From an uncultured Candidatus Poseidoniales archaeon (GTDB taxonomy: Archaea; Thermoplasmatota; Poseidoniia; Poseidoniales; CAYMED01): 17,057 nucleotides of DNA. Positions 1 through 13,951 of the stretch are shown piece after piece. The stretch spans positions 3,452 to 20,508 of the forward strand of contig CAYMED010000027.1 in assembly GCA_964389655.1 (NCBI GenBank), read 5' to 3'. The notes beneath the pieces were generated by a model. That model was not told the DNA's origin, searched no databases, and worked only from the letters and a program-made list of their open reading frames with translations. The position numbers were made by a program, and so were the translations under genes. How positions within the stretch are numbered: the first letter of the stretch is position 1; the number at the start of each line of letters is the position of its first letter.

Positions 1-3000
1 GGAGTCCTGCAGCAGGGGGGGAATGGGGGCTAGGAGCCGGTGGAAGTGAGCCAGTTTGTGGCGGCGAAAGAGGAGGGAGTCCACCTAGTGCCCCTGAAGG
101 TAAGGGGGGTGGTGCATTTGATGCTGCTAGGATGGAAGCAATTTCAGAATCGCTCACACCTTCGTTTCCCGCCATACCAATTTGATTGGGTACGGAAAGG
201 GCCTCTCGGCGGCGAAAATCCTGATTTAATGGAACTGAAAAATCAACAAGTTCCTCTCCCTCATCCAAGTCAGGAGAGCGGAAGATGAAGAACAACAGCC
301 CACTCACAATGGCAAGGATTACTGCGACAATGCCAATTCCTGTAGGAGATGCAACACGCTCAGAAAAAGTCAATTCTGCTGAAGTCGCAGAAACACTGGA
401 GAGCGACATCGATGTTGAGCCATTGATTGACCAATCATTTCCCGAGGTATCCCAAGCATCGAAGAGCACGCTTGTAATTTTCAAATTAGGACTTGGGATG
501 ACAGAGACCATCAAATCAACTCGGTCCCCGGCCGCGAGATCAAATGTTTCTTGTTCGAATTGCACCATAATTGCCGAAGAGGCATTTGAAACAAGTCGGA
601 CAGTTGCAGGTTCTGATCCAATGTTCGAAACGGATAGTTTGACATCAATGCCAATTTCAGGATCTACGTCTGGAAATTGATCTCGGTCAAGTGAAAGGCT
701 CAAAATTGAGGCACCGATTGTTTTGAGACTAATCGAATCAAAAATGGATTCCGTCAGCAGAGAATCAATTTCAATTCCCAGAATTCCAGACGTACCCCCT
801 GCAAGATTATCAGGCGCCTTCAGTGTAATGGAAAAACCAATAGTTGCACCGGGTTCAATAGAAGATGGTGGTAAATTCGCAAATCCGATGCTCCAATTCG
901 CCGCAGAGTCCACACCAGATACATGAGGGGTGATCACGAGTTGATCAACAAGAACATTACCTGTATTTGTAAGCGTCCAATGTGTGTCTATTCGGCCACC
1001 AGAACCCACTTCAATCTCATCTGGATCATCCGGAACAAGGGAAAGAGATGCCCGAGGGAGAAGCCGCACCTCAATCACAAAGCCTGCCATTTCCACCCCA
1101 TCTAATTTCAAAGAGATAGACAATTCTGCCTCATCACCACCTCGCGCATCAGGGCCGGGATCCAAAATAAGATCAAACGTCCCATTTTCCGAAGAGTTAA
1201 CGAGAATTCCATTTCCTGTACTGGTGGATTCATCGACATAAAATCCCCAAGTTAAACGATCAATTGAGCAAGACACCGAAAGGTCAACTCGCTGATTTCC
1301 ATCATTGAAGATTTCCATTGTAAATACCTGAGATACACCTTCGACAAGGTTAATTGGATCGAGACCATCACCCCAGCCACCGGGTAAAATATCGCTATTT
1401 CCACTCGTCCGTAGGACTGACGTAAAAGAGGTCAATGGAAGAACTGTAAGGTTGTACGAAGGCGAGGCAAGGAGTATACCCGTGGTCCGACTTTTGACTG
1501 TACAATCCACTTTCTCAATATCACCTGCCGCTGGAAGCCCCGCACTCACTGCAGGAACGTAGACTGCTCCGATTAGCGGAAGAAAACCGTTAGGGCTGAT
1601 TGAAGCCAAATCCCGTACCACTTCCACATCGTCAGGGGTACTTGCAACGTGATCGACCACCCACCCCCTCGGAGTCATACAAGTCACCCGAAGATCAACA
1701 GGGGCGTTTCCTTCATTTTCCAAACTCATACGCAAATCTGTATTTGCGCGGGGGGCTGCTGCGATATCAGTGCCGCCGGGATAAGAGACTCGGATTGATT
1801 CTATCACCTCAACTTGGCTGACGAAGCGTAGATTATCCGATACTTTAGAGTCATTTTGGCTTGTAATTGTTACATCGACAACATAAGTGCCTGCCCGCGC
1901 ACGTATGGGAGGATCTGCGTTCAAATCAGCCAGTGTATCTTCGAGTATCACCTCAAATTCTTTTGAAGGGGTACTTCCACTTTCTTCGGAAAGCTCGATC
2001 TTGGTCAATCCCCCTACTATCGATGCAGACCAGCCGGATGATGCGGGAAATAACATCCCATCGCTTTCCCTCATACGCTGGACTTGACTGATTTCAATCA
2101 GACCAGTTTCAGGTGACGTGCCCTCATTCGAGAGGTGAATCTCCCAAGAGATTTTTGAATGGTTCATCGGGTCCAAAGGACGATTGAGAAGGCGAAACTC
2201 GTCTGCTGCGTCTATCGCCAGCGCATCTGTTTCAGGATCTTCAACATCTAAACGAAGGCCTACATCAGATACAAGAAAGTCAAAGAGGAAAACATTCGGG
2301 CCTGCACCTGATATTGCGTCTTCGGGCTCAGGAACTGCATCATTCGGATCAAGTGAAATGCGTAGTGTGTGCTGCCCAACTGTCGTAAATTTGTGGGTGA
2401 TAGACAACGTTCCTATTTTCCCTGAAGCGAGACTTGATTCAATGTGTTCATCAATCAGGATGGATTCGGTCACGTCCTCTATTTTTACGAGATGATTCCC
2501 CGCAGGACCATACCCCTCATTTGCCCACACAACCTGAATTGTTGTCCGCTCACCGCGTTGTGGCTGGGCTGGATAGAGGACCACGCCTCCCTCTCTGATT
2601 GAGAAATCAGGACGAGAATCAACAGAGCCGCGTGTAGAAGTAACTAGGGCATACTCAACATCTCCGCCTGCTGCACTGAGTACGCGAACAGTCCAGATGC
2701 CCGATTCAGCAGATGGAATGTAGATACGCTCGATTGTATTCAAGCGATCTGCGGAACCACTTGTGGAACTTTGCCCTGAAGAGAATACATTTCCAAGATA
2801 AACCAATCCTGAAGGAGATCGCACCACTAGGTCAAGGTCGTCTATCAAATGTGACGCATTTTGCGCGCCTAGGGAACTAGATGCAAGATCAGACCATGCA
2901 AGACTGACTTCAAAATCCGAGCCACCAGTTACTTGCCATCCATAAGCAAGAGATCTCCCTTCCAGCAAAGTGCTCTGATCGTCAACCCACGTCTCTAAGG

Positions 3001-4720
3001 GACCCATCCCATCTGATGGAGCGAGGCTTCCCAACAAATCTGCTCTACCCCAACCTTCAGCGGAATTTGGCACATCGGGCGCACCAATATCGGTAGCACC
3101 CTGTACGAGCATTGCACGCATTAGATCGCCACTTGGGGCACTGATACTCTGGTTATCAACCAAATACTGTCTTATCAAAGCCGACGCACCAGCGACTGCA
3201 GCTGCCGACATTGAAGAACCTGTCAAAACACCACCATGGGAGCTACCAGATGTATGTGTGGATCCACCAGTACAACTAGGAGCTGCTGGTGAAGCAAGTT
3301 CTTCGGCTCGGGACGAACACACAGAGGTACCAGGTGCAACGAGATCTGGTTTTATACGGCCATCTGCTGTTGGCCCTCTAGATGAAGAGGCCCATACGTC
3401 ATCTTGCACCGAACCACCTTCCGCAGTCGTAGACACGCCAATTGCAAGAGAATTCTTCGCGGTTGCAGGAGAAGTAATTCCATTTGAGGCATCATTCCCC
3501 GCTGAATAGATTACAAGCAAGTCTCGATTATTTCGTATAGCGGAATCAGTATCACTTGATTCAGTGGTGTAATTGCCATGATTTGATTTGGCGCCCCATG
3601 CGTTAAGATGGATGCGCGCGCCCCTATTCCTGGCATCTGTGTAAAGGTCTACTAGAGAATTCCAAGATGGGTCAAGTTCACCTTGTTTGGCATCATCTCC
3701 GACCTGGTAGAACCATATGTACGAGGAAGGGGCAAGCCCCAGAAGGGTGGAATTCGAATCACCCGTCCCTGCAATCATTCCGGCCATGTGCGTCCCATGG
3801 CCTGTAAACGAGTCCAACGAGGAAATATCAGGAGCATAGACATTCGATACAGACAATATTCGATCATCTAGATCGGGATGATCATCATCAACCCCCCCGT
3901 CTGCGATTGAAATCATCTGGCCAAGTCCAGTAAGCCCTGACGGCAATTGCGGGCTGGCAGGACGCACTCCCATTGCAAGCGCAACCTCTGAATTATGAGG
4001 CACAATCTGAAGAACGGGTGCAACCCATAACACACCGGGGTCATGTGCAAGTGCATGAATGGTGTTTGGAGAGACTGGATTCAGTAAACAAGTCGAGGTG
4101 CTGCAATGCTGCAGGGAAAGAAAAGGGCCTATGCGTTCAAGCGTATCGCTGAAGCGATCTTTGGCAAGCACAATTTGAACTTCTTGCGTAGTTGATGTAA
4201 ACCAAAGGTCAGGGTGTAGACGATCAGCTGGGCGAATGCCACCAGACCATATGACGCGAGGATCGCTATTCAGGTCAGTCAACAATGAGGGAAATGAGGC
4301 AATATCTGAAGCGCGCGTGATTAACAAATGGGATGGGCCCTCGTCGAGGATCGTCAAGCCGTAATCTTGCGCAAGAGAAAAGCCGGAAGATGCCCGTGTT
4401 GAGCGCGGGAGGACTGCAAGGAGGCCAGAGTCGTCGGCTGAAAGGTGAGAGGGGGCTGCTGGGCGAAATTCAGCAGATGAGTCCCACATTTGAGAACCAA
4501 GTGCCACCCATGGACTAGATTCAGCTTCTACTTCAGAGAGGCCTTCGTGCATTGGAGAAATCAGATGTATAGGTGAAAAAGAAACCTCTCCAACGGGACC
4601 CAAGGTGGCTTCATCAGAACGGGACACTGGCAGAGGCATGGTCACTGCAACAGCGATGCCCGCAAAGGGAAGCATGAGGATTGCAAATGCGAAGGCTATC
4701 CGCCCACTTTCACCTCTCAT
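1..4720 (-). CDS. Membrane-anchored S8 (subtilisin, KP-43-like) serine peptidase with CARDB and NEW3/COG1470-like Ig stalk; 3' end outside window (>1573 aa)
   Basis: Translated by hand; not in the ORF track because there is no stop before the window edge. ATG at 4720 (in-frame TGA upstream at 4750-4748). N-terminus MRGESGRIAFAFAILMLPFAGIAVAV is signal-like. Catalytic motifs: GQMISIADGGVD (Asp 3901-3899), GHGTHMAGMIAG (His 3799-3797), SAGND, SSRGPTADGRIKPDLVAPG, LTGSSMSAAAVAG (Ser 3214-3212), EGWGR. These are followed by a KP-43-type C-domain (SLAWSD...DDLDLVVRSP), a CARDB-like module (WANEG), five NxG(N/T/S) Ig modules, a TM helix GIGIVAVILAIVSGLLFFIF (340-281) and a Pro-rich tail. Confidence 0.93.
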   Translation of the reverse strand, partial: MRGESGRIAFAFAILMLPFAGIAVAVTMPLPVSRSDEATLGPVGEVSFSPIHLISPMHEGLSEVEAESSPWVALGSQMWDSSAEFRPAAPSHLSADDSGLLAVLPRSTRASSGFSLAQDYGLTILDEGPSHLLITRASDIASFPSLLTDLNSDPRVIWSGGIRPADRLHPDLWFTSTTQEVQIVLAKDRFSDTLERIGPFLSLQHCSTSTCLLNPVSPNTIHALAHDPGVLWVAPVLQIVPHNSEVALAMGVRPASPQLPSGLTGLGQMISIADGGVDDDHPDLDDRILSVSNVYAPDISSLDSFTGHGTHMAGMIAGTGDSNSTLLGLAPSSYIWFYQVGDDAKQGELDPSWNSLVDLYTDARNRGARIHLNAWGAKSNHGNYTTESSDTDSAIRNNRDLLVIYSAGNDASNGITSPATAKNSLAIGVSTTAEGGSVQDDVWASSSRGPTADGRIKPDLVAPGTSVCSSRAEELASPAAPSCTGGSTHTSGSSHGGVLTGSSMSAAAVAGASALIRQYLVDNQSISAPSGDLMRAMLVQGATDIGAPDVPNSAEGWGRADLLGSLAPSDGMGPLETWVDDQSTLLEGRSLAYGWQVTGGSDFEVSLAWSDLASSSLGAQNASHLIDDLDLVVRSPSGLVYLGNVFSSGQSSTSGSADRLNTIERIYIPSAESGIWTVRVLSAAGGDVEYALVTSTRGSVDSRPDFSIREGGVVLYPAQPQRGERTTIQVVWANEGYGPAGNHLVKIEDVTESILIDEHIESSLASGKIGTLSITHKFTTVGQHTLRISLDPNDAVPEPEDAISGAGPNVFLFDFLVSDVGLRLDVEDPETDALAIDAADEFRLLNRPLDPMNHSKISWEIHLSNEGTSPETGLIEISQVQRMRESDGMLFPASSGWSASIVGGLTKIELSEESGSTPSKEFEVILEDTLADLNADPPIRARAGTYVVDVTITSQNDSKVSDNLRFVSQVEVIESIRVSYPGGTDIAAAPRANTDLRMSLENEGNAPVDLRVTCMTPRGWVVDHVASTPDDVEVVRDLASISPNGFLPLIGAVYVPAVSAGLPAAGDIEKVDCTVKSRTTGILLASPSYNLTVLPLTSFTSVLRTSGNSDILPGGWGDGLDPINLVEGVSQVFTMEIFNDGNQRVDLSVSCSIDRLTWGFYVDESTSTGNGILVNSSENGTFDLILDPGPDARGGDEAELSISLKLDGVEMAGFVIEVRLLPRASLSLVPDDPDEIEVGSGGRIDTHWTLTNTGNVLVDQLVITPHVSGVDSAANWSIGFANLPPSSIEPGATIGFSITLKAPDNLAGGTSGILGIEIDSLLTESIFDSISLKTIGASILSLSLDRDQFPDVDPEIGIDVKLSVSNIGSEPATVRLVSNASSAIMVQFEQETFDLAAGDRVDLMVSVIPSPNLKITSVLFDAWDTSGNDWSINGSTSMSLSSVSATSAELTFSERVASPTGIGIVAVILAIVSGLLFFIFRSPDLDEGEELVDFSVPLNQDFRRREALSVPNQIGMAGNEGVSDSEIASILAASNAPPPLPSGALGGLPPLSPPQTGSLPPAPSPHSPPAAGL

Positions 4721-4805: not shown

Positions 4806-5852
4806 TCAGAGGTTGTAATATGCAGAAATAGAGGCATCGGTGCGCGCGACGGAGGCGCGCCAGTCTAATTCAGCACCCATCAAAGCACGGATTGCATCTA
4901 TATTTTCAGGTATCACATCACTTTCCTGATGAATCGCTTGGAAATAATGCAGTACATCACCTTGCAAACTTACCCCATCTTTCCAGACAAAGATTTCATG
5001 CAAGTCGCCCCACTTTCGCCCAATATCTCTTGCCAACTCCATCACTTCCGCAGTTGAAGTGATTCGTGTGCTTGCACCATCCATAGTGATCACGCGTGGC
5101 GTATTTGCCCACAAATCCAATACTGATTCTGTTGAAAGCCCATGCCCGGGTGGGAGATTCACAGTAATTGCATGGACGTGCATGATCGTAGTTGGAACTG
5201 CAACTGCAAGGCTAGTTATTTGGATATCGGGTTCAACCGTCATCAGATCTGGACCGTGATGACTTGGAACTTTCAACACAGGCTTTATCGCATTTATCGG
5301 ACCCCTAGATGAATCACCAGGGTCTGCAGCCCTCCGAATCATAACCGAATTTACTGAGATTTGCCCGCGTTCCCGCACTGAGTCATGTAATGGCACCAAT
5401 GTCCGAGATAATCCAGTGGTATTACAGGAAACAACTCTTGTACAATCTACGTCAACGTTCATGCTGTGATTTGCACTAGATGAATACGACCTCCCAGTGA
5501 GGGCATGTTCCTCACCACCTTGAAAGATATGCTTGATCCCCTTTTTGAGATATATTGCACGATTCTCGGCACCAAGGTGGCCTGGGGAACAATCAACAAC
5601 AATGTCGGATGCAGCTAATAAATCACTAATCCCACCTTGGCAGAAATATCCCTGCTCCGAGAAACGAGCAATGCGTTCAGAGTCATCTGAAGTGCAGTAG
5701 AGAGGGAACCCTTTTTTCACAGCAAGATCACAGCCAAAAGAGGGGCCAGTTTTTGTTACACCACAAACTTCCATGTCATCCTGAGCATCAACTGCATCAG
5801 CAACTCGTTTGCCGATTGTGCCGAACCCATTGATCGCAACTCGGATGGTCAT
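4806..5852 (-). CDS. gap: Glyceraldehyde-3-phosphate dehydrogenase, archaeal type II (phosphorylating)
   Basis: Motifs VAINGFGTIGKRVADAV, IFQGGE, catalytic RVVSCNTTGL, RRAADP, PSHHGPD, QAIHQESDVIPENIDAIRA. Start moved from 5897 to the ATG at 5852 (MTIRVAING), because the Rossmann motif normally begins within a few residues of the N-terminus. Confidence 0.96.
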   Translation of the reverse strand: MTIRVAINGFGTIGKRVADAVDAQDDMEVCGVTKTGPSFGCDLAVKKGFPLYCTSDDSERIARFSEQGYFCQGGISDLLAASDIVVDCSPGHLGAENRAIYLKKGIKHIFQGGEEHALTGRSYSSSANHSMNVDVDCTRVVSCNTTGLSRTLVPLHDSVRERGQISVNSVMIRRAADPGDSSRGPINAIKPVLKVPSHHGPDLMTVEPDIQITSLAVAVPTTIMHVHAITVNLPPGHGLSTESVLDLWANTPRVITMDGASTRITSTAEVMELARDIGRKWGDLHEIFVWKDGVSLQGDVLHYFQAIHQESDVIPENIDAIRALMGAELDWRASVARTDASISAYYNL

Positions 5853-5877
5853 CAAACCTGTGCCCAAATCTCTCGCG

Positions 5878-5890
5878 CATAATGCTTTCC
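5878..5890 (-). promoter_or_regulatory. Putative BRE/TATA promoter for a leaderless gap transcript
   Basis: The minus strand reads GGAAAG-C-ATTATG, with the TATA-like hexamer 31-26 nt upstream of ATG 5852 and no SD. This fits archaeal leaderless promoter geometry, but the TATA match is imperfect. Confidence 0.35.
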
Positions 5891-5951
5891 GAGCCATTTT
5901 CCAATCTGATAAGCAAAGAAATCATGAGGCAATGGCGGGCCCACTCATACA

Positions 5952-7445
5952 ATGCGGGAGGCCATAGAGCGTAGTGTTCGGCTAAATCGCCGGCTATTGC
6001 ACGGTGAACGGGGAATCGCTCTAGCGATCGAACAAGACCGTGCGCTCAAGATTGGGTGGCCAAATAATGAGCCTGCTCCCCGTAGCGGAGACCTCGGTTT
6101 TGCGCCAGCCCTTCCTGAAGGTCTTCGGCTTCGATACTTAGGGGAACCTGCCTCATTCGCCATCGCAGCAAACAATGGAGCAAATGTCAATATTGAGGGA
6201 GGAGGAGGCACGTGGCTGGGTGCTTGGCAGCGTCATGGGAGAATTCGTATTGAGGGTGATTCAGGCAAGGGACTCGCCCATGGTGCAACTGGCGGACACA
6301 TCATTGTTGAAGGCTCAGTAGGTGATGACGCTGGGACGAGGCTAGATGGAGGTATGGTACTCATTCGCGGTAATACTGGCAAGCGCATTGGGGCCGGCAT
6401 GTCATCTGGCCTGATTTTAGTGCAAGGAGACATCGGTGAAGATCCTGGGGCAATGATGACTGGTGGGCGGATCATTGTCGAAGGGAGGGCGCCTGTTGCG
6501 GGTTCAGGTGCACGGTCGCGTCCCTCTAAAGCCGCCGATAGAAAAGTTGCAGAGAAGGCATTTTCTGATTTAGGGATCACTGTGGACAAGGATGCTGTTG
6601 TTATTGAGGCAGATGGTGCAAGTCTCGCGGTGACTCAAGAAAGGCGCCCTGCGACTGGCGACTGGTCAACAATACAATTGGTTTCTGACCAAAAAGAACC
6701 CCTAGAAGGAAGGCGTTCTCTAGATCTGACTCGAGTTATGACATCATATGATGACGCAACACCACCGCTGGGCCTGCGTGCAGCACTTCTACTCTCTGAA
6801 GGGGATTCAAGTCCAGGTGCACCAAGCCTTGGGATCAAGAGGGATCAAATCCGGCGTCTTGATGCGAAAACATTCGCAGAACATCTCTGCAATCCCATTG
6901 CCACAGCAGGCCTCCTCATTGATATTGATGAGATGCCCGATCTTGATGACCAGGACCTTGACGGCATCCTAGCAGCATTGCTTTCAGTCCATGAGGTCTC
7001 GCCACCCCTCCTCATCATTGGAGGGTTAGCACGCGTGGATAGATTGGCTAGGATTGCCGAGCGAGTGCTACCGACTGCAATACTACTCAATTTTGAGCAT
7101 TCCGAGGGACGAACGGCCACCAGCGTACTCCCAATCTCGGGACGCTTAGGCGGACGTATACGTGAAACATCAGAAACCCCCCTCGGCCTATGCATACCTT
7201 GGGAGATCTGTGCAGATGATTTGCTAATTGCGGCCGCCACAGGTGCTGATTTCATATTGGGCACAACGGACATCGCTCTCGAAGAGCTCACTGCAAGTGC
7301 AAGAGGACGGCTCTTGAGCCTTGGAATTGATTCGATTGAGCAGTTGGGCCGTAGAAACCTACGCGCACTTGACCCCACGACTGCCGCTGTGAGTGGGTTG
7401 CGGCTGATCGGGTATGAACGGCCCCTCCCCGAATGGCTTGCTTGA
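5952..7445 (+). CDS. GXGXG (GltB3/FwdC-like) beta-helix fused to a degenerate FMN glutamate-synthase (GltB2-like) barrel
   Basis: N-terminal half has repeated GxxxxG-GxI-I-xG turns (GATGGHIIVEGSVGDDAG, GMSSGLILVQGDIG, MMTGGRIIVEG). C-terminal half retains GltB2 landmarks (DDLLIAAATGADF; LGIDSIEQLGRRNLRALDPTTAAVSGLRLIG) but lacks the cofactor-binding motifs. Confidence 0.8.
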   Translation: MREAIERSVRLNRRLLHGERGIALAIEQDRALKIGWPNNEPAPRSGDLGFAPALPEGLRLRYLGEPASFAIAANNGANVNIEGGGGTWLGAWQRHGRIRIEGDSGKGLAHGATGGHIIVEGSVGDDAGTRLDGGMVLIRGNTGKRIGAGMSSGLILVQGDIGEDPGAMMTGGRIIVEGRAPVAGSGARSRPSKAADRKVAEKAFSDLGITVDKDAVVIEADGASLAVTQERRPATGDWSTIQLVSDQKEPLEGRRSLDLTRVMTSYDDATPPLGLRAALLLSEGDSSPGAPSLGIKRDQIRRLDAKTFAEHLCNPIATAGLLIDIDEMPDLDDQDLDGILAALLSVHEVSPPLLIIGGLARVDRLARIAERVLPTAILLNFEHSEGRTATSVLPISGRLGGRIRETSETPLGLCIPWEICADDLLIAAATGADFILGTTDIALEELTASARGRLLSLGIDSIEQLGRRNLRALDPTTAAVSGLRLIGYERPLPEWLA

Positions 7446-7448
7446 GGA
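7444..7448 (+). promoter_or_regulatory. Shine-Dalgarno site for pheT
   Basis: GAGGA overlaps the upstream TGA stop and ends 6 nt before ATG 7455. Confidence 0.55.
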
Positions 7449-7454
7449 ATACTG

Positions 7455-9170
7455 ATGCCTACAATTACTGTGCCAGAGACCATATTTAGGAGACTCCTTG
7501 AAAAGCGTGGAATTGTACTTAACCGTGCTGAGATATTGGAGAAACTTCCACTCATAGGAGTGGACATCGGAGGCTGGACTGAAGAGGGCCTCGAAATCGA
7601 AGTGTTCCCAGATCGCCCAGACATGCTCAGTCCTGAAACACTTGTCCGAGTGATAGCACCATTTCTATATGGTGAGAAGATATCACCACATCTCAAGATT
7701 AAAGATGCCACAACTGCAATAACTGTCGATGAAGAGTTGTCACAAATACGCCCCGTCATACTGGCCGCGATCATCAGAAATGTCAATTTAGGGTCGAATG
7801 AGGAAGAACGAGATCACTTTGTTAAATCAATGATGGACCATCAAGAAAAATTACATCACGCACTTGGAAGAGGGAGAAAAAGGGCATCAATCGGCGTACA
7901 TGATTTGGCATATCTCAAACCACCTTTTCGCACAATTGCGGCGCCTAAAACATACTCGTTCGTGCCACTAGGTGAAAATAACCCGATGACGATAGATGAA
8001 ATTCTCTCTAAACATCCAAAAGGCATTGATTATGCACACCTGCTAGAGGGAATGTCTCATGTCCCATTAATACTCGATTCTGAGGAACAAGTCCTTTCAT
8101 TCCCCCCCATCATCAATGGCCGTATTACCACAATCAGTACTACAACGCGCGACGTTCTGATCGACGTTACCGGTTGGGATACCCGCGCGTGCACCGCGAG
8201 TTTGTTACTGATGTGTTTGCAATTTTTGGAACATGGTGGCCAAATCGAAGCAGTCGAAGTATTGGGTGCTGGCCGAGATACAGTAGCCACACCATCGGCT
8301 GAAGCAACGACGTGGAAAATTGATCCCCTTGCCATCAGCAATCTCCTTGGCATCGATCTAGGAGCAGAAGAAATTGCAGTAGCACTCGAAAGAATGGGAG
8401 GTGTGCTCGAACAGGAAACGAGTGCCGGGAACCTCTCCGCTCGGATGCCTGCTTGGAGAGCAGATCTATTGCATCCAATCGACATCGTCGAAGATGTTGC
8501 AATTGGGCATGGATATGAAAAAATCGGAAATGCAGACCCACGCACTCCAATGACGGGTTCGGAATTACCCATACAAGTATTTGACCGTAGGATTCGATTA
8601 TCCCTCCAAGGCGCTGGTTTCTCCCAAGTACAATCACTTTCACTATCATCGGAGAATATTGAATTTGATGCGCTGGAATGGGCCCCTCTGGGGTCCGTCA
8701 CAAAAATTGAAAACGAGATTAGCAAGGACCATACAATCCTTCGTCAGCGCATCACGCCTGGACTTCTTGGTTTGTTGGCTACCAATCGCCACAATGACCT
8801 CCCACAGCGAATTTATGAATCTGGGACCGTGGTCATCGATGGCAGAAACCAGCGTCGGATGGGATGGTCCGCATGTGAAAGAACATCTGGTTTTGCTAGA
8901 AGTAGAGGGCTTGTACAACGCCTTCTGTTAGACCTTGGAATCAGTGTAAAGAGTGTTGACATCACGCCTTGCAACGCTGGGCCATGGATCAATGGGCGAG
9001 GTGCCTCGGTCGAAATCAATGGAACAAATGTGGGATTTTTTGGCGAAATTAGCCCCCTTATTGCAGAGTCCTTCGACCTGCATGCACCAATCCATTCCGG
9101 TGAAATCGATTTGGAGGCTTTGTCCCGAATTGTGAAAGACCCCATTACAGGAAATGTGCTGCTTTCGTGA
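7455..9170 (+). CDS. pheT: Phenylalanine--tRNA ligase beta subunit (archaeal type)
   Basis: MPTI start, FPDRPDMLSPE, QEKLHHALGRGRKRASIGVHD, VLSFPPIING, DVTG, PAWRADLLHPIDIVEDVAIGHGY, NRHNDLPQRIYESG. The 571-aa length is typical of archaeal PheT. Confidence 0.96.
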   Translation: MPTITVPETIFRRLLEKRGIVLNRAEILEKLPLIGVDIGGWTEEGLEIEVFPDRPDMLSPETLVRVIAPFLYGEKISPHLKIKDATTAITVDEELSQIRPVILAAIIRNVNLGSNEEERDHFVKSMMDHQEKLHHALGRGRKRASIGVHDLAYLKPPFRTIAAPKTYSFVPLGENNPMTIDEILSKHPKGIDYAHLLEGMSHVPLILDSEEQVLSFPPIINGRITTISTTTRDVLIDVTGWDTRACTASLLLMCLQFLEHGGQIEAVEVLGAGRDTVATPSAEATTWKIDPLAISNLLGIDLGAEEIAVALERMGGVLEQETSAGNLSARMPAWRADLLHPIDIVEDVAIGHGYEKIGNADPRTPMTGSELPIQVFDRRIRLSLQGAGFSQVQSLSLSSENIEFDALEWAPLGSVTKIENEISKDHTILRQRITPGLLGLLATNRHNDLPQRIYESGTVVIDGRNQRRMGWSACERTSGFARSRGLVQRLLLDLGISVKSVDITPCNAGPWINGRGASVEINGTNVGFFGEISPLIAESFDLHAPIHSGEIDLEALSRIVKDPITGNVLLS

Positions 9171-9249
9171 AAATTGATTTGTGAGTAAATGTACTGAAAG
9201 ACAGACATTGACCGAGTGATTTCAAGGGTATTCAGCCACCCGGCTTGCT

Positions 9250-11418
9250 GTGGAAAATCGCTGGGCCGCCATTGCCTTTGCCGCGTTGATCATGCCAATT
9301 TGTTCGATTTCTGCACAAGGGTCTTCTGATTCTGCCATCGGGATGAAAATTTTGAGCGACTCCAATAGTGTATGGGCGAATGGCACACTGAATATTACCA
9401 TCATTCTTTGGAATAATGGAACTGATCCTGTCCAAATGAGTCTCTTTGGGCAGGCAGATCCAGACATCCAACTTGTGGGCATTCCCTCTAGTGAATTTTC
9501 AGTTTACCCAGGTGGATCACATGCACCGATCACGGTCCGGGTTCATGCATTAACCTCCGCCACATATGGATACACATCGGCATCAATTCAGGCAATTCCT
9601 GATGGGGACTCCAATTTGAAAATCCAGCAAGACGTCGCTTTCAGAGTCCTTGTACCTTCCAAATTGCGCATCGAACGCTCTGCAATTGGGTGGCCTGAGA
9701 ATATTGAACCGGGAACAAATTATTCTACACTGGTGAGAATCTCAAATCATGGAAACACCTCAGAGAATGCAAATTTAAGCATTGAAAGTGAAGAAGAATG
9801 GGAATATGGCTGTTATTTAGTAGGTGGAGGATCTGCTGAACGCCTCACAGTCGCCCCTGGAACTAATGAATCAATACGAGTTTGGACCATAGTCCCCTCA
9901 CTTTCAGAATCCCGGGCACTAGCAGGTCATGGGCACAGATTCGACGTACTCCTCGTCCCAGACGTAGACCAAAAAACAATGAGATGGTCATTTGACGTAG
10001 GTGTTTCAAGCCACCCCTCTGTTGCATTCCCATCAGGTCTAGAAACTGAATTTGAGATTGAGGCTGAAGGCACTTCCCGAGTACGCATTCCCCTGACAAA
10101 CCCCGGAAATGATGCACAACAAGTGGAAATTCGATTTGCAACAAATCAGACTCCTGAAGATCAGCAAATCCTAATCGAAGGTGGGTGGTCTGTTCAATTC
10201 ATAGAAGATGATCTCACGCCCGGAGTTTACGTATCTCCCAGCACAGTGTCAGTAATTGATCTGTTGATTGCCGCCCCTGATGGGTTGCGAGAAGGCGAAT
10301 TCAATTTTGAAATAATACTTCTCGGAGTTGAGGAAGGAACCGCACGGTCGTCATTTGTGGCAACCATCGTGTGGACACGGAGCCTCTCATTCAATGCACT
10401 CCTTGATTGCCCATCCTATGACCCGCCCTCCAACTGCGAACTCATCGCCAATGTTGGAAATAACGGATTTCTCGCAGAGGACGTACTAATCACCGTGGAC
10501 AACATGGCAACTAATTCGATTACTTTTGCAGGTCCAACGATGAAAAACCTCTCAATTAATGCTGGACGGGAAAGTAGTGCTGTTTGGGCGTTTGCCATCG
10601 TTTCTGGAACCCCTGCTAAAGAAATCATTCAAATCCCACTTAGGCTCTTTGCAGGAAATGAACTCATTGCTGAAACACAGGTTGAATTCACAGTTGGAAT
10701 ACAGCGTTCTTGGGAAGAAGATGGACCTCCATCTCTTGAAGTTCTAGGCGATGGGCGAGCACGCATCGTATGGATCATCCGCAATACCGGCAATGCTGAT
10801 GAAGCAGTTGACCTTAGCATTGCGCCTAGCCTAGAAGCAACTCGAGTTCAACTCGTTCAGTCATCGAGTTGTGCCCCACTAGATGAAGGAATATCCCATC
10901 TAGATATTGGATGCAACTCTGTCGCACCAAATGGCGTGGTCCGCTTCGAAATTGACCTCACCGCTCCACCCGCAACTGTGCTTGAGGCAAAAGATACCAT
11001 CGTATTCGAGGTAAGGGGAAAAGATGCACCAGATCAAGTCATCACAAGACGAACTATCGAAATTGATCGAGATGCTGATGGGAAATGGATACTGCCAATT
11101 TCGGGAGAAAATCCCGAGGAAAAGTGGTATTCAAGTTCCTTGAGTTACCTTATTCCACGAACGTTCATTATCCTAGACATATTGGCAACCTTCGCGATTG
11201 CACTATTGCTATTGCTCGCCATACAAAGAGGCCTTCGACGGAGGAAGAAAATTGGCCGGATGGAACGAGAGCACTATGAAGCACGACGCCAGGAAAGAAT
11301 TCGGGTACCAAAGCCAGATGCAATCAAGCCAAGGCGAATAATCAACACTAAAGACCATGATCGTGATCTTGATTCTGCACTCGATTCCCTAGCACAGATC
11401 ACCAACAAAGAGGAGTAG
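9250..11418 (+). CDS. Secreted, C-terminally membrane-anchored protein with about five NEW3/COG1470-like Ig modules
   Basis: GTG start; signal-like RWAAIAFAALIMPICSISAQ. Module signatures LWNNGT, ISNHGN, LTNPGN, VGNNGF, IRNTGN occur at roughly 100-120-aa spacing. TM segment FIILDILATFAIALLLLLAI is followed by basic QRGLRRRKK. Confidence 0.82.
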   Translation: MENRWAAIAFAALIMPICSISAQGSSDSAIGMKILSDSNSVWANGTLNITIILWNNGTDPVQMSLFGQADPDIQLVGIPSSEFSVYPGGSHAPITVRVHALTSATYGYTSASIQAIPDGDSNLKIQQDVAFRVLVPSKLRIERSAIGWPENIEPGTNYSTLVRISNHGNTSENANLSIESEEEWEYGCYLVGGGSAERLTVAPGTNESIRVWTIVPSLSESRALAGHGHRFDVLLVPDVDQKTMRWSFDVGVSSHPSVAFPSGLETEFEIEAEGTSRVRIPLTNPGNDAQQVEIRFATNQTPEDQQILIEGGWSVQFIEDDLTPGVYVSPSTVSVIDLLIAAPDGLREGEFNFEIILLGVEEGTARSSFVATIVWTRSLSFNALLDCPSYDPPSNCELIANVGNNGFLAEDVLITVDNMATNSITFAGPTMKNLSINAGRESSAVWAFAIVSGTPAKEIIQIPLRLFAGNELIAETQVEFTVGIQRSWEEDGPPSLEVLGDGRARIVWIIRNTGNADEAVDLSIAPSLEATRVQLVQSSSCAPLDEGISHLDIGCNSVAPNGVVRFEIDLTAPPATVLEAKDTIVFEVRGKDAPDQVITRRTIEIDRDADGKWILPISGENPEEKWYSSSLSYLIPRTFIILDILATFAIALLLLLAIQRGLRRRKKIGRMEREHYEARRQERIRVPKPDAIKPRRIINTKDHDRDLDSALDSLAQITNKEE
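11410..11415 (+). promoter_or_regulatory. Shine-Dalgarno site for rnhB
   Basis: GAGGAG forms the last two sense codons of the upstream gene, 5 nt before ATG 11421. Confidence 0.6.
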
Positions 11419-11420
11419 AT

Positions 11421-12167
11421 ATGTGGGTTGGTGGCGTCGATGAAGCAGGAAGGGGGGCTGTTGTTGGGCCCCTTGTGATTGCAACACTCATCCTTCCAGT
11501 AACTGACCTTGCTCAATTAGAGAGCCTTAATCCCCGCGACTCAAAACAACTTAGTCCTGCTAGGAGGGAAGAAATTGATAAGGAAATCAGAGAGCTTGCA
11601 AATACACGCAACTGGGCCATCAAGTGTTTGCACCTAACCCCACTTGAAATTGACACATGGGTAAGGGCAAAGGGACTTAACCGAGCTGAAGCAGATGGAT
11701 TTGGTCGACTCTTATCCCTAGCATCGAGTAGCATCACTGAATCGATTGAAGTTCTTGTAGATGCATGTGATGTAAATGCAGAACGCTTTGGACAACAAGT
11801 ATCTCAAGCCGCTGGAAGAGAGAACATTGTAGTCTCGTCCAAGCATGGAGCGGATGCTCGAGATCCCGTCGTAGGCGCTGCAAGCATTTTGGCAAAGGTT
11901 GAGCGGGATGCATCAATCCGAGCCATTTCCAAAGAATGCAACTTAGATCTCGGTTCTGGATATCCATCAGACCCCCGCACCCGTGCCTGTTTGCCGCAGC
12001 TGCTTGCAGGGTCATCCCCCCACCCTGATGTGCGATGGTCTTGGTCAACGGTTTCAAACGCCTGGAAAGAAATCCATCACACTAGTCCACCAGTTCGCTC
12101 TTCAGAATTAAGAACAAGAAATCAGACAAGCCTATTCGACCACATTTCACCTGAAGGGATGAAATGA
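11421..12167 (+). CDS. rnhB: Ribonuclease HII
   Basis: GVDEAGRGAVVGPLV, DSKQLS, VDACD, HGAD...VGAASILAKVERD, GSGYPSDPRT, RWSWST. C-terminal PIP-box-like QTSLFDH. Confidence 0.97.
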   Translation: MWVGGVDEAGRGAVVGPLVIATLILPVTDLAQLESLNPRDSKQLSPARREEIDKEIRELANTRNWAIKCLHLTPLEIDTWVRAKGLNRAEADGFGRLLSLASSSITESIEVLVDACDVNAERFGQQVSQAAGRENIVVSSKHGADARDPVVGAASILAKVERDASIRAISKECNLDLGSGYPSDPRTRACLPQLLAGSSPHPDVRWSWSTVSNAWKEIHHTSPPVRSSELRTRNQTSLFDHISPEGMK

Positions 12168-12173
12168 GGGATT

Positions 12174-12179
12174 GAGGTG
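12174..12179 (+). promoter_or_regulatory. Shine-Dalgarno site for gltX
   Basis: GAGGTG, 8 nt before ATG 12188. Confidence 0.65.
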
Positions 12180-12187
12180 GACACATT

Positions 12188-13951
12188 ATGGGAGCATCGG
12201 ATTGGCCAGACGAAGTGATCCAAATCGTCCACCATCTCGCCCTCCAAAATGCTGTGGAATACAATGGCAAGGGGCAAGTGGGGTCCGTGATGGGGAGAGT
12301 ACTTGGGGAGAGACCTGAATTGCGTAGCCAAGCCAAAGAAATCGCATCACTTATCGCGTCAGAAGTACAACTAGCCAATGCAAGGGCAGAGCGAGAAGGA
12401 GTTGCAAAACTGCGAGATGAACTTGCAGATGCAGATCCAAGCCGCTTAGAAAAGCGAAAAGCCACGCCGAAACGAGAAGGGTTTCCTGAACTTCCAAACG
12501 CAGAGAGGGGGCATGTTGTTCTTCGCTTTGCCCCAAACCCAAACGGCCCACTGACACTTGGACATAGCCGTGGTTTGCTGACTAATTCCATTTACGCGAA
12601 GAACTTGGAAGGTCGCTTAATCCTTCGATTTGATGATACCGATACTCGTGTCAAGCCACCCCATCCTGAAGCATACCAGTGGATTCTCGAAGATACTGAG
12701 TGGTTGATAGGCCGAAACCCGGATGAGGTCATCATGGCCTCAGACCGAATCCAAATTTACCACAAATATGCCGTGCTGGCAATTGAAAAGGGGCTCGCAT
12801 ATGTCGACCTCACACCCGCAAATGAATTTCGTGAGATGCGAATCCAAGGTAACCTTCCCGCTGACCGTGACCTCGATTGTGAGACACACCTAGCCCGGTG
12901 GAATTCAATGTTGGATGGTACGTTTTCCCCTGGCGAGGCAGTTGTTCGAATTCGCACATCTGCTGAATTGACGAACCCTGCATTGCGAGATTGGCCTGCA
13001 TTGCGGATTCAAGAAAAGCCACACCCACGCGAACAAATCGCGTCATCAGTACGCGTTTGGCCATTACTTGATTTCCAATCGGCGATTGATGACCATTTGT
13101 GCGGAGTAACTCATATCATCCGCGGAAAAGACCTCATGGATTCAACAAGACGCCAAACACTTCTCTATGAAGGACTGGGATGGACATATCCTGAAACGAT
13201 TTATTGGGGCCGGGTCAAAATCCATGGCTATGGGAAGTTCAGCACATCCGGAATGCGAGAAGATATTGAGCAAGGGCGAGTAACGGGATGGGATGATCCA
13301 CGGCTGCCTACCCTTCGAGCATTAAAGAGGCGTGGAATTAGCCCCGTTTCGCTGCACCAACTGTGGAGCGAATTGGGACTAACTGCAAAGGATATTTCCG
13401 CCTCCATGGAAACACTATCCACATTCAATGCGCGGATCATTGACTCCACTGCACATCGCGCCATGTTTGTTCGTAATCCTAGACGAATTCGTTTGAAGGA
13501 TTCTGAGCATGGTTCCAAGGAAGCCGTGCATTTGCCCATCCACCCTGATCGTCCCGAATTAGGCGTAAGAGAAATAATGCCAGATTGGGATGATGGATTC
13601 TGTGAAGTGATCCTTGAACCAGGCGATTTAAGCACGGATTCAGTAATCCGCTTGCGCGGTTGGGCGAATGTCAAGGTTGACGACCTCAACCCAGATGGAA
13701 CCGCTAGCGGACGCTGGCTAGGTGGCAAAAGAGATCCAAAGATTGTACAGGCCCATTGGCTACCACTGGGAAGAGGGCGGCTGGCTCAATTGACTCGTGT
13801 TGAAGATGAAAACATCATCATTGAGAGTGGAATGCTTGAATGGAACAAGGACCACAGTGTTGGCGACATATTACAACTTGAACGCATTGGATTTGCAATC
13901 ATTGAGAGAATAAGTGATGATGGTGTTGAGTTAATGTTCACTCATAGATAA
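12188..13951 (+). CDS. gltX: Glutamate--tRNA ligase (archaeal type)
   Basis: Archaeal N-terminal domain (ALQNAVEYNGK), LRFAPNPNGPLTLGH (HIGH equivalent), LRFDDTD, NPALRDW, VWPLLDF, GVTHIIRGKDL, KFSTS (KMSKS equivalent), GWDDPRLPTLRALKRRGI, QLERIGF. Confidence 0.97.
   Translation: MGASDWPDEVIQIVHHLALQNAVEYNGKGQVGSVMGRVLGERPELRSQAKEIASLIASEVQLANARAEREGVAKLRDELADADPSRLEKRKATPKREGFPELPNAERGHVVLRFAPNPNGPLTLGHSRGLLTNSIYAKNLEGRLILRFDDTDTRVKPPHPEAYQWILEDTEWLIGRNPDEVIMASDRIQIYHKYAVLAIEKGLAYVDLTPANEFREMRIQGNLPADRDLDCETHLARWNSMLDGTFSPGEAVVRIRTSAELTNPALRDWPALRIQEKPHPREQIASSVRVWPLLDFQSAIDDHLCGVTHIIRGKDLMDSTRRQTLLYEGLGWTYPETIYWGRVKIHGYGKFSTSGMREDIEQGRVTGWDDPRLPTLRALKRRGISPVSLHQLWSELGLTAKDISASMETLSTFNARIIDSTAHRAMFVRNPRRIRLKDSEHGSKEAVHLPIHPDRPELGVREIMPDWDDGFCEVILEPGDLSTDSVIRLRGWANVKVDDLNPDGTASGRWLGGKRDPKIVQAHWLPLGRGRLAQLTRVEDENIIIESGMLEWNKDHSVGDILQLERIGFAIIERISDDGVELMFTHR

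Follow-up and report, generated by a model that had tools for sequence, protein, structure and literature searches.

A gene directly upstream of pheT in an uncultured Candidatus Poseidoniales archaeon encodes a protein, here called P0001, in which an N-terminal GXGXG β-helix precedes a glutamate synthase-type barrel that has lost its flavin mononucleotide (FMN), substrate, and iron-sulfur (Fe-S) motifs. The gene lies in a window, the whole stretch of DNA analyzed, of 17,057 nucleotides (nt) (assembly GCA_964389655.1, contig CAYMED010000027.1, positions 3,452 to 20,508), and coordinates below are those of the window. Among enzymes of a known type, P0001 is a degenerate form not described before, and its family is a single-copy core gene of the Poseidoniales. 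It is a repurposed protein, for which, on balance, we lean toward a non-redox binding or scaffold role. Its features are as follows.

5952..7445, + strand: coding sequence of P0001, a GXGXG β-helix plus degenerate Glu_synthase-type barrel protein of 497 amino acids (aa); open reading frame (ORF) intact
5952..6584, + strand: N-terminal right-handed β-helix domain, residues 1 to 211; Pfam GXGXG match at residues 76 to 179 (nt 6177 to 6488)
6585..7445, + strand: linker and predicted cofactor-less triose-phosphate isomerase (TIM) barrel, residues 212 to 497, assigned by hhalign via intermediates and by a domain model
6801..6845, + strand: low-confidence loop, residues 284 to 298 (predicted local distance difference test [pLDDT] score < 50), at the site of the lost MSxGAxS motif; the following TGEGG segment is deleted (motif table)
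7188..7259, + strand: strand 7 to strand 8 region, residues 413 to 436; GG[IL]R is replaced by IPW, D...GAD is kept, and the following Cys-cluster segment is deleted (chained alignment)
7350..7442, + strand: C-terminal tail, residues 467 to 497, R..LRA...TAA.SGLRL.GY.RPLP.W, the best-conserved stretch of the protein (invariant columns)

The ORF is uninterrupted. A database gene model of P0001 begins at residue 16; because residues 1 to 15 are conserved in homologs, translation probably begins at the upstream ATG (5952). The genome represents a third, poorly sampled family of Poseidoniales (f1), and P0001 shares only 32 to 40% identity with all other homologs. An AlphaFold2 model of the protein built from 33 sequences had a pLDDT of 90.8. 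The only Pfam match was to GXGXG (PF01493; 33.8 bits against a cutoff of 32.5). Residues 1 to 222 of the model superposed on the β-helix of glutamate synthase GltB (1ofe_A, residues 1242 to 1498; Z = 23.1, rmsd = 2.5, 208 residues aligned) and matched FwdC/FhcC, subunit C of formylmethanofuran dehydrogenase and of the formyltransferase/hydrolase complex (6s6y_C and 5t61_C; Z = 20 to 21). The best sequence matches to the β-helix were also to FwdC/FhcC: searched against PDB sequences, the family profile matched FwdC chains at 1e-32 and GltB at 8e-12.

The C-terminal half had no Pfam or NCBIfam match. A direct hidden Markov model search of P0001 with PF01645 (Glu_synthase) returned nothing at E values up to 0.1, and none of the orthologs in the 41 closest genomes reached 1e-5 on that model. 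An exhaustive HMMER search led to proteins of 606 to 642 aa with the same N-terminal GXGXG domain, the C-terminal halves of which score on PF01645 with E values of 1e-61 to 1e-9. When the family profile of the window protein (A1) was aligned by hhalign with the reverse-order GXGXG-Glu_synthase proteins of other Thermoplasmatota (A2), the probability was 99.95 (E = 8e-38, 483 columns); A2 aligned in turn with the canonical GltB2 of the window genome (probability 98.7, E = 2.5e-16). Because these two alignments chain, the homology of the C-terminal half of P0001 to the Glu_synthase barrel is established, at the level of sequence profiles, by transitivity. Barrel homology was detectable solely via the A2 intermediates: compared directly with single canonical sequences, the A1 profile reached barrel probabilities of 1.3% (GltB2) and 0.14% (P0021), and against P0179, a fusion described below, the β-helix alone aligned.

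Structure matches agreed with the profile alignments. The barrel domain (residues 212 to 497) folded alone had a pLDDT of 87.4, and we searched this model against 48,161 representative chains. The top 20 matches were all TIM barrels of the FMN or inosine monophosphate (IMP) type (Z = 14 to 16.3), including mandelate dehydrogenase (16.3), flavocytochrome b2 (15.7), and type 2 isopentenyl diphosphate isomerase (15.3). GltB residues 709 to 1188 matched with Z = 14.3, compared with 10 to 11 for generic TIM barrels. An Atlas feature search with the same residues gave leads below threshold (0.79 to 0.88), with unnamed archaeal clusters in the top rows and named clusters that were mostly PF01645.

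To establish the status of the cofactor motifs, we read each position from the two chained alignments (A1 to A2 and A2 to GltB2). MSxGAxS is replaced in P0001 by the low-confidence loop, and TGEGG is deleted from both P0001 and the family consensus. QGAKPG.GG has given way to a (L/V)(I/L)D(I/L)D...P stretch (LIDID..P in P0001), SPPPHHD is deleted, and DG..GGTGA is replaced in P0001 and the consensus alike. On strand 7, the FMN-phosphate loop GG[IL]R(T)G.D has become IPW (DIPW in the family consensus), and the Cys-cluster segment that follows GAD and forms the Fe-S center is deleted, which leaves D...GAD as the sole remnant of the barrel motifs. No Cys is conserved at Fe-S ligand positions among 92 orthologs. 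An Fe-S site built from the CIPWEIC sequence was considered and rejected, as neither of its two Cys residues is conserved in that set. The preliminary description of the stretch, drawn from the sequence by eye, had proposed an intact reverse-order fusion with GXGXG at the N terminus, a barrel stripped of its FMN and Fe-S motifs, and a Cys-cluster segment that looked deleted; the intact frame, the PF01493 match and β-helix superposition, the hhalign chain with its structure matches, and the chained motif alignment bear out each of these points. The sequence of P0001 rules out a canonical flavin or Fe-S enzyme, and we infer that the protein is no longer capable of flavin or Fe-S redox chemistry.

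Reversed domain order is not unique to P0001, as canonical fusions in the same order exist. P0178 and P0179, GXGXG-Glu_synthase fusions of 676 to 699 aa, give PF01645 E values of 1.6e-85 and 4e-89, and P0179, read directly, keeps the canonical motifs MSFG, GDGG, QGAKPG, GGT, and GGIR, none of which is kept in the barrel of P0001. These fusions look like MgsB-MgsC fusions of N-methylglutamate synthase (MgsABC), the gene order of which is listed as mgsA-B-C (PMC5023230); like P0001, both MgsB plus MgsC and the fusions place GXGXG before Glu_synthase. One source annotates P0178 as MgsC, and P0179, with its canonical FMN and substrate motifs, lacks the Cys cluster. The A2 proteins (P0127, P0093, P0082, and others; 596 to 660 aa) are homologous to P0001 over their full length and share its tail. 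Unlike P0001, they keep a CxxCxxC cluster, some also keep GG[IF]R, they are 100 to 160 aa longer, they score 1e-9 to 1e-61 on PF01645, and they are not adjacent to pheT. Within this group, P0127 and P0093 retain both the GG loop and the CxxCxxC cluster, and P0082-type proteins retain only the Cys cluster; both elements are gone from the sister-order proteins (~470 aa), from short forms of 441 to 448 aa, and from the Poseidoniales proteins. As read from their motifs, the relatives thus form a graded series of loss from canonical fusion to cofactor-less protein.

A maximum likelihood tree was inferred by a quick method (30 sequences, 605 columns, rooted on normal-order GltB2). The reverse-order proteins grouped together with a Shimodaira-Hasegawa-like approximate likelihood ratio test (SH-aLRT) support of 91 when the Mgs-like fusions P0178 and P0179 were included and 99 when they were left out. 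P0178 and P0179 themselves branched beside the rest of the reverse-order clade. The Poseidoniales proteins formed a single clade with a support of 100, the stem of which measured 1.87 substitutions per site; it was nested among the A2 forms, which surround it, and the sister-order clade. The C-terminal tail is common to the whole reverse-order clade, including A2, the sister-order forms, and the short forms; the Poseidoniales and A2 proteins end alike in TAA.(S/T)G..L.GY...LP.W, and the end of P0179 resembles the tail by eye.

To determine how widely the family is distributed, we scanned species genomes by pattern and found 267 that encode a relative. The 80 of these that were listed are Poseidoniales (Poseidoniaceae, Thalassarchaeaceae, and "MGII") or unclassified euryarchaeote, Methanobacteriota, or Thermoplasmatota metagenome-assembled genomes. 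Exactly one full-length copy was present in all 41 of the closest genomes. In the phylum sample, one copy occurred in 47/47 other members of the order, so that 48/48 sampled Poseidoniales carry the gene; a shorter homolog was found in 7/7 genomes of the sister order, and the family was patchy across the rest of the phylum.

The loss of all cofactor motifs would also suit a decaying remnant, that is, a pseudogene in the making under relaxed selection, as would divergence faster than that of PheT at long range (32 to 39% versus 43 to 50% identity). However, no stops were found and frames were intact in every genome searched. Across 20 independent ortholog pairs with dS of <2, the ratio of nonsynonymous to synonymous substitution rates (dN/dS, Nei-Gojobori) was 0.055 for the whole gene (0.037 for the β-helix and 0.061 for the barrel), and pheT gave 0.055 in the same pairs. 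Purifying selection on the family thus matches that on pheT in strength, and because its ratio is on par with that gene's, we conclude that it is not decaying. In addition, 68 columns are at least 95% conserved over the 92 orthologs, and the structural model is confident. For the family taken together, decay is refuted, and we consider it extremely improbable for P0001. Relaxed selection, named in the preliminary description as an outcome that would count against it, was not seen in the family across the 20 pairs, and its label of "repurposed pseudo-enzyme" is a fair one for a gene that is intact, selected, and stripped of its motifs.

Descent from GltB/MgsBC-type proteins raises a second explanation, that P0001 serves glutamate synthase (GOGAT) or an N-methylglutamate synthase-like complex as a non-catalytic subunit or as a regulator. 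The window genome does encode a split GOGAT on contig C3, consisting of a 523-aa degenerate barrel protein, a canonical GltB2, and an 856-aa fusion of glutamine amidotransferase (GATase) and GXGXG domains, as well as a membrane protein of the Glu_synthase family on contig C4. However, this canonical GOGAT already has a GXGXG domain of its own, and a PF01645 gene was found in only 16 of the 41 closest genomes. The other 25 carry a P0001 ortholog without any PF01645 gene and without a second GXGXG gene; in family f3, 0/19 genomes have PF01645, all of them at least 91% complete. Because P0001 orthologs persist in these 25 genomes, P0001 is independent of GOGAT. The genes mgsA, gmaS, and mgd were not found near the P0001 gene, the neighbors of which are gap and pheT. 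No amidotransferase gene was present among the window ORFs scanned (4806 to 13951), two large ORFs at the ends of the window lying outside the scan; the preliminary description's statement that the window has none therefore stands for the scanned ORFs. Its proposal of a glutamate synthase or MgsABC subunit fails on the 25 genomes, and the gene-content evidence indicates that P0001 is not a GOGAT or Mgs subunit, a role to which we give very little credence. A sensor of glutamate or 2-oxoglutarate, likewise suggested there, was dropped: the QGAKPG segment, which in glutamate synthase carries a 2-oxoglutarate-contacting lysine, is gone, no substrate motif is retained, and nothing else points to these ligands.

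The relation to GltB (PF01645 plus PF01493, including the split archaeal GltB2/GltB3) is one of homology with retention of the same two folds as a β-helix and barrel pair. P0001 differs in its reversed domain order, in lacking the amidotransferase and central domains, and in lacking the FMN-phosphate loop, QGAKPG, DGGTGA, and the Cys cluster; its family also occurs in genomes without GOGAT and carries an extra conserved C-terminal tail. Several side observations were made on the GOGAT genes themselves. The 523-aa protein (L003:1225-2796, − strand; contig C3, ~96.5 to 98.0 kb) is encoded directly upstream of GltB2, matches PF01645 weakly (E = 4.6e-6, residues 378 to 431), and has a CxxCxxC motif near residue 130; by sequence, a diverged GOGAT subunit of the Fe-S or central-domain-like type is possible. 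Within the Poseidoniales, canonical glutamate synthase genes divide sharply between families: PF01645 occurs in 14/20 genomes of family f2 but in 0/19 of family f3, and the GATase-GXGXG fusion (~860 to 900 aa) occurs in f2 and the window genome only.

FwdC is the other known protein with which P0001 could be confused. P0001 matches the FwdC-type models TIGR03122 (E = 4.9e-18, 65.3 bits) and NF042910 (43.7 bits) below their NCBIfam cutoffs of 130.65 and 340 bits, and FwdC has no barrel domain. For these reasons, the FwdC name on orthologs is most likely an annotation artifact. Public annotations of P0006 and P0010 read "formylmethanofuran dehydrogenase subunit C" or "glutamate synthase domain-containing protein 3," and both are misleading. 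Such names, assigned by automatic pipelines, can misdirect inferences about C1 or nitrogen metabolism, and P0001 is neither of these proteins.

P0001 descends from a reverse-order fusion in the MgsB-MgsC gene order, which joined a GltB3/FwdC-like β-helix to a TIM barrel of the Glu_synthase family. On the Poseidoniales stem, the barrel kept its fold but shed its Fe-S cysteines, its substrate and FMN motifs, and the FMN-phosphate loop. Since then, purifying selection has preserved the gene in single copy in the core genome, whether or not a canonical glutamate synthase is also encoded. The product most likely acts as a binding module that lacks a cofactor, serving as a scaffold or adaptor or else binding a small ligand, and the β-helix would remain the structural partner of the barrel, as in GltB. 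Binding would take place via conserved post-strand loops and the invariant tail: apart from the tail, the conserved non-glycine positions of the barrel directly follow predicted strands (D324, P329, R361, L393-P394-G397, and D423). Their placement suits either a binding face that was kept or a newly formed active site.

The latter possibility defines the principal rival, a neo-enzyme in which the barrel pocket is kept for non-flavin chemistry, with an active site composed of D324, R361, D423, the LP..G loop, and the PW of strand 7. Many TIM barrels perform non-flavin chemistry. The conserved polar residues lie right after the barrel strands, the barrel ratio of 0.061 reflects strong purifying selection, and a long stem branch followed by stasis is the pattern expected of neofunctionalization. 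However, P0001 has no motif in common with a known non-flavin barrel family and no Pfam or NCBIfam match in this region, its best structural matches are without exception FMN/IMP enzymes, the cofactor loops of which are absent from P0001, and no metabolic neighbor is conserved across lineages. We regard a neo-enzyme as possible, if rather unlikely.

Several points nonetheless weigh against a binding or scaffold role for P0001. A new enzyme activity would account just as well for the strong conservation of residues that follow the barrel strands, and the conserved residues were placed on the catalytic face by secondary-structure order alone rather than by model coordinates. Judged from sequence alone, a non-canonical flavin site may be present. 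P0001 itself differs from its family at 8 of the 68 highly conserved positions (e.g., R296K, D299Q, and D375T). Finally, its nearest relative is 39 to 40% identical (44.5% for PheT of the same two genomes), leaving no close relative with which to measure selection in the window's own lineage.

The position of the gene beside pheT suggests yet another role. The features at and around this junction are as follows.

7455..9170, + strand: pheT, archaeal phenylalanine-tRNA ligase beta subunit (TIGR00471, E = 7e-126), the downstream operon partner
7444..7447, + strand: GAGG, a Shine-Dalgarno-like element over the stop codon and 7 nt upstream of the pheT ATG
4806..5897, − strand: type II (archaeal) glyceraldehyde-3-phosphate dehydrogenase (GAPDH; NF003251, E = 1.3e-123), divergent, separated by a 54-nt intergenic region

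The P0001 stop codon (TGA, 7443 to 7445) precedes the pheT ATG (7455) by 9 nt, and the two genes are likely cotranscribed, judging from this arrangement. pheT is the same-strand 3′ neighbor in 79 of 80 Poseidoniales loci, at 11 to 66 nt (measured between tblastn alignment edges), and the remaining locus stops at a contig edge. GAPDH is divergent upstream in 77/77 loci. The arrangement of the gene with pheT persists at 32 to 36% protein identity. It is part of a wider conserved block (S8 peptidase, gap, the P0001 gene, pheT, rnhB, and gltX), and adjacency to pheT is confined to the order. In the sister order (f4; 7/7 genomes; L104 to L107), a homolog of ~470 aa follows NUDIX and polyprenyl synthase genes; at L106:2446-5525 (+ strand), it begins 4 nt after polyprenyl synthase, with no pheT nearby. 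Homologs in other Thermoplasmatota adjoin a PyrK-like flavoprotein gene, an aromatic amino acid lyase gene, or a radical S-adenosylmethionine gene.

This persistent pairing, together with the short gap and the Shine-Dalgarno-like element over the stop codon, speaks for a factor associated with phenylalanyl-tRNA synthetase (PheRS) that, cotranslated with PheT, would modulate aminoacylation, editing, or assembly through binding to the synthetase or to tRNA-Phe. However, the whole housekeeping block is conserved, so adjacency may be plain inheritance; the homologs of the sister order and of other Thermoplasmatota have unrelated neighbors; and PheT here is a normal full-length archaeal PheT. A complex prediction with full-length P0001 and PheT residues 1 to 358, which do not include the catalytic-like module, gave no answer (score of 0.00) and speaks neither for nor against binding. 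We consider a PheRS-associated factor improbable, and the linkage is best read, on gene order, as inherited operon structure rather than as evidence of shared function. The preliminary description had reported the 9-nt spacing and overlapping Shine-Dalgarno element, which are as described, and had termed the gene coupled to pheT; this holds as an order-wide operon, but not as functional coupling.

The gene is part of the core biology of the Poseidoniales, which are among the most abundant archaea of the surface ocean and, to our knowledge, have no cultured member: it is a single copy kept by all genomes sampled and constrained like an aminoacyl-tRNA synthetase subunit. Neither Pfam-A nor NCBIfam includes a curated family for the fusion or for this barrel, and literature searches on Poseidoniales glutamate synthase, archaeal GXGXG proteins, and Marine Group II formylmethanofuran dehydrogenase found no paper on the family. 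As a natural case of stepwise change, the relatives, which run from a canonical flavoenzyme fusion down to a protein without cofactor motifs, should be useful for the study of pseudoenzyme evolution. More speculatively, the barrel and invariant tail might have gained a new essential activity or interaction, as a non-flavin enzyme or as a translation accessory factor expressed with PheT. We advance this idea only tentatively; if it is true, every marine Group II archaeon depends on a family without a characterized member.

Additional observations concern the neighboring genes. Upstream, an ORF of at least 1,573 aa (window positions 2 to 4720, − strand) runs off the window, and its syntenic counterparts are S8 peptidases of ~1,550 to 1,600 aa. 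Downstream of pheT, a 722-aa ORF with an immunoglobulin-like FixG_C match (9250 to 11418, + strand) is followed by the genes for RNase HII and glutamyl-tRNA synthetase. The slot between pheT and rnhB varies among loci, holding a 976-aa protein in L007, a 64-aa ORF in L008, and nothing in L116. In five loci (L024, L049, L081, L064, and L089), the codon aligned to PheT Met1 is CTG or ATT, which represents either unusual start codons or starts shifted by a few codons.

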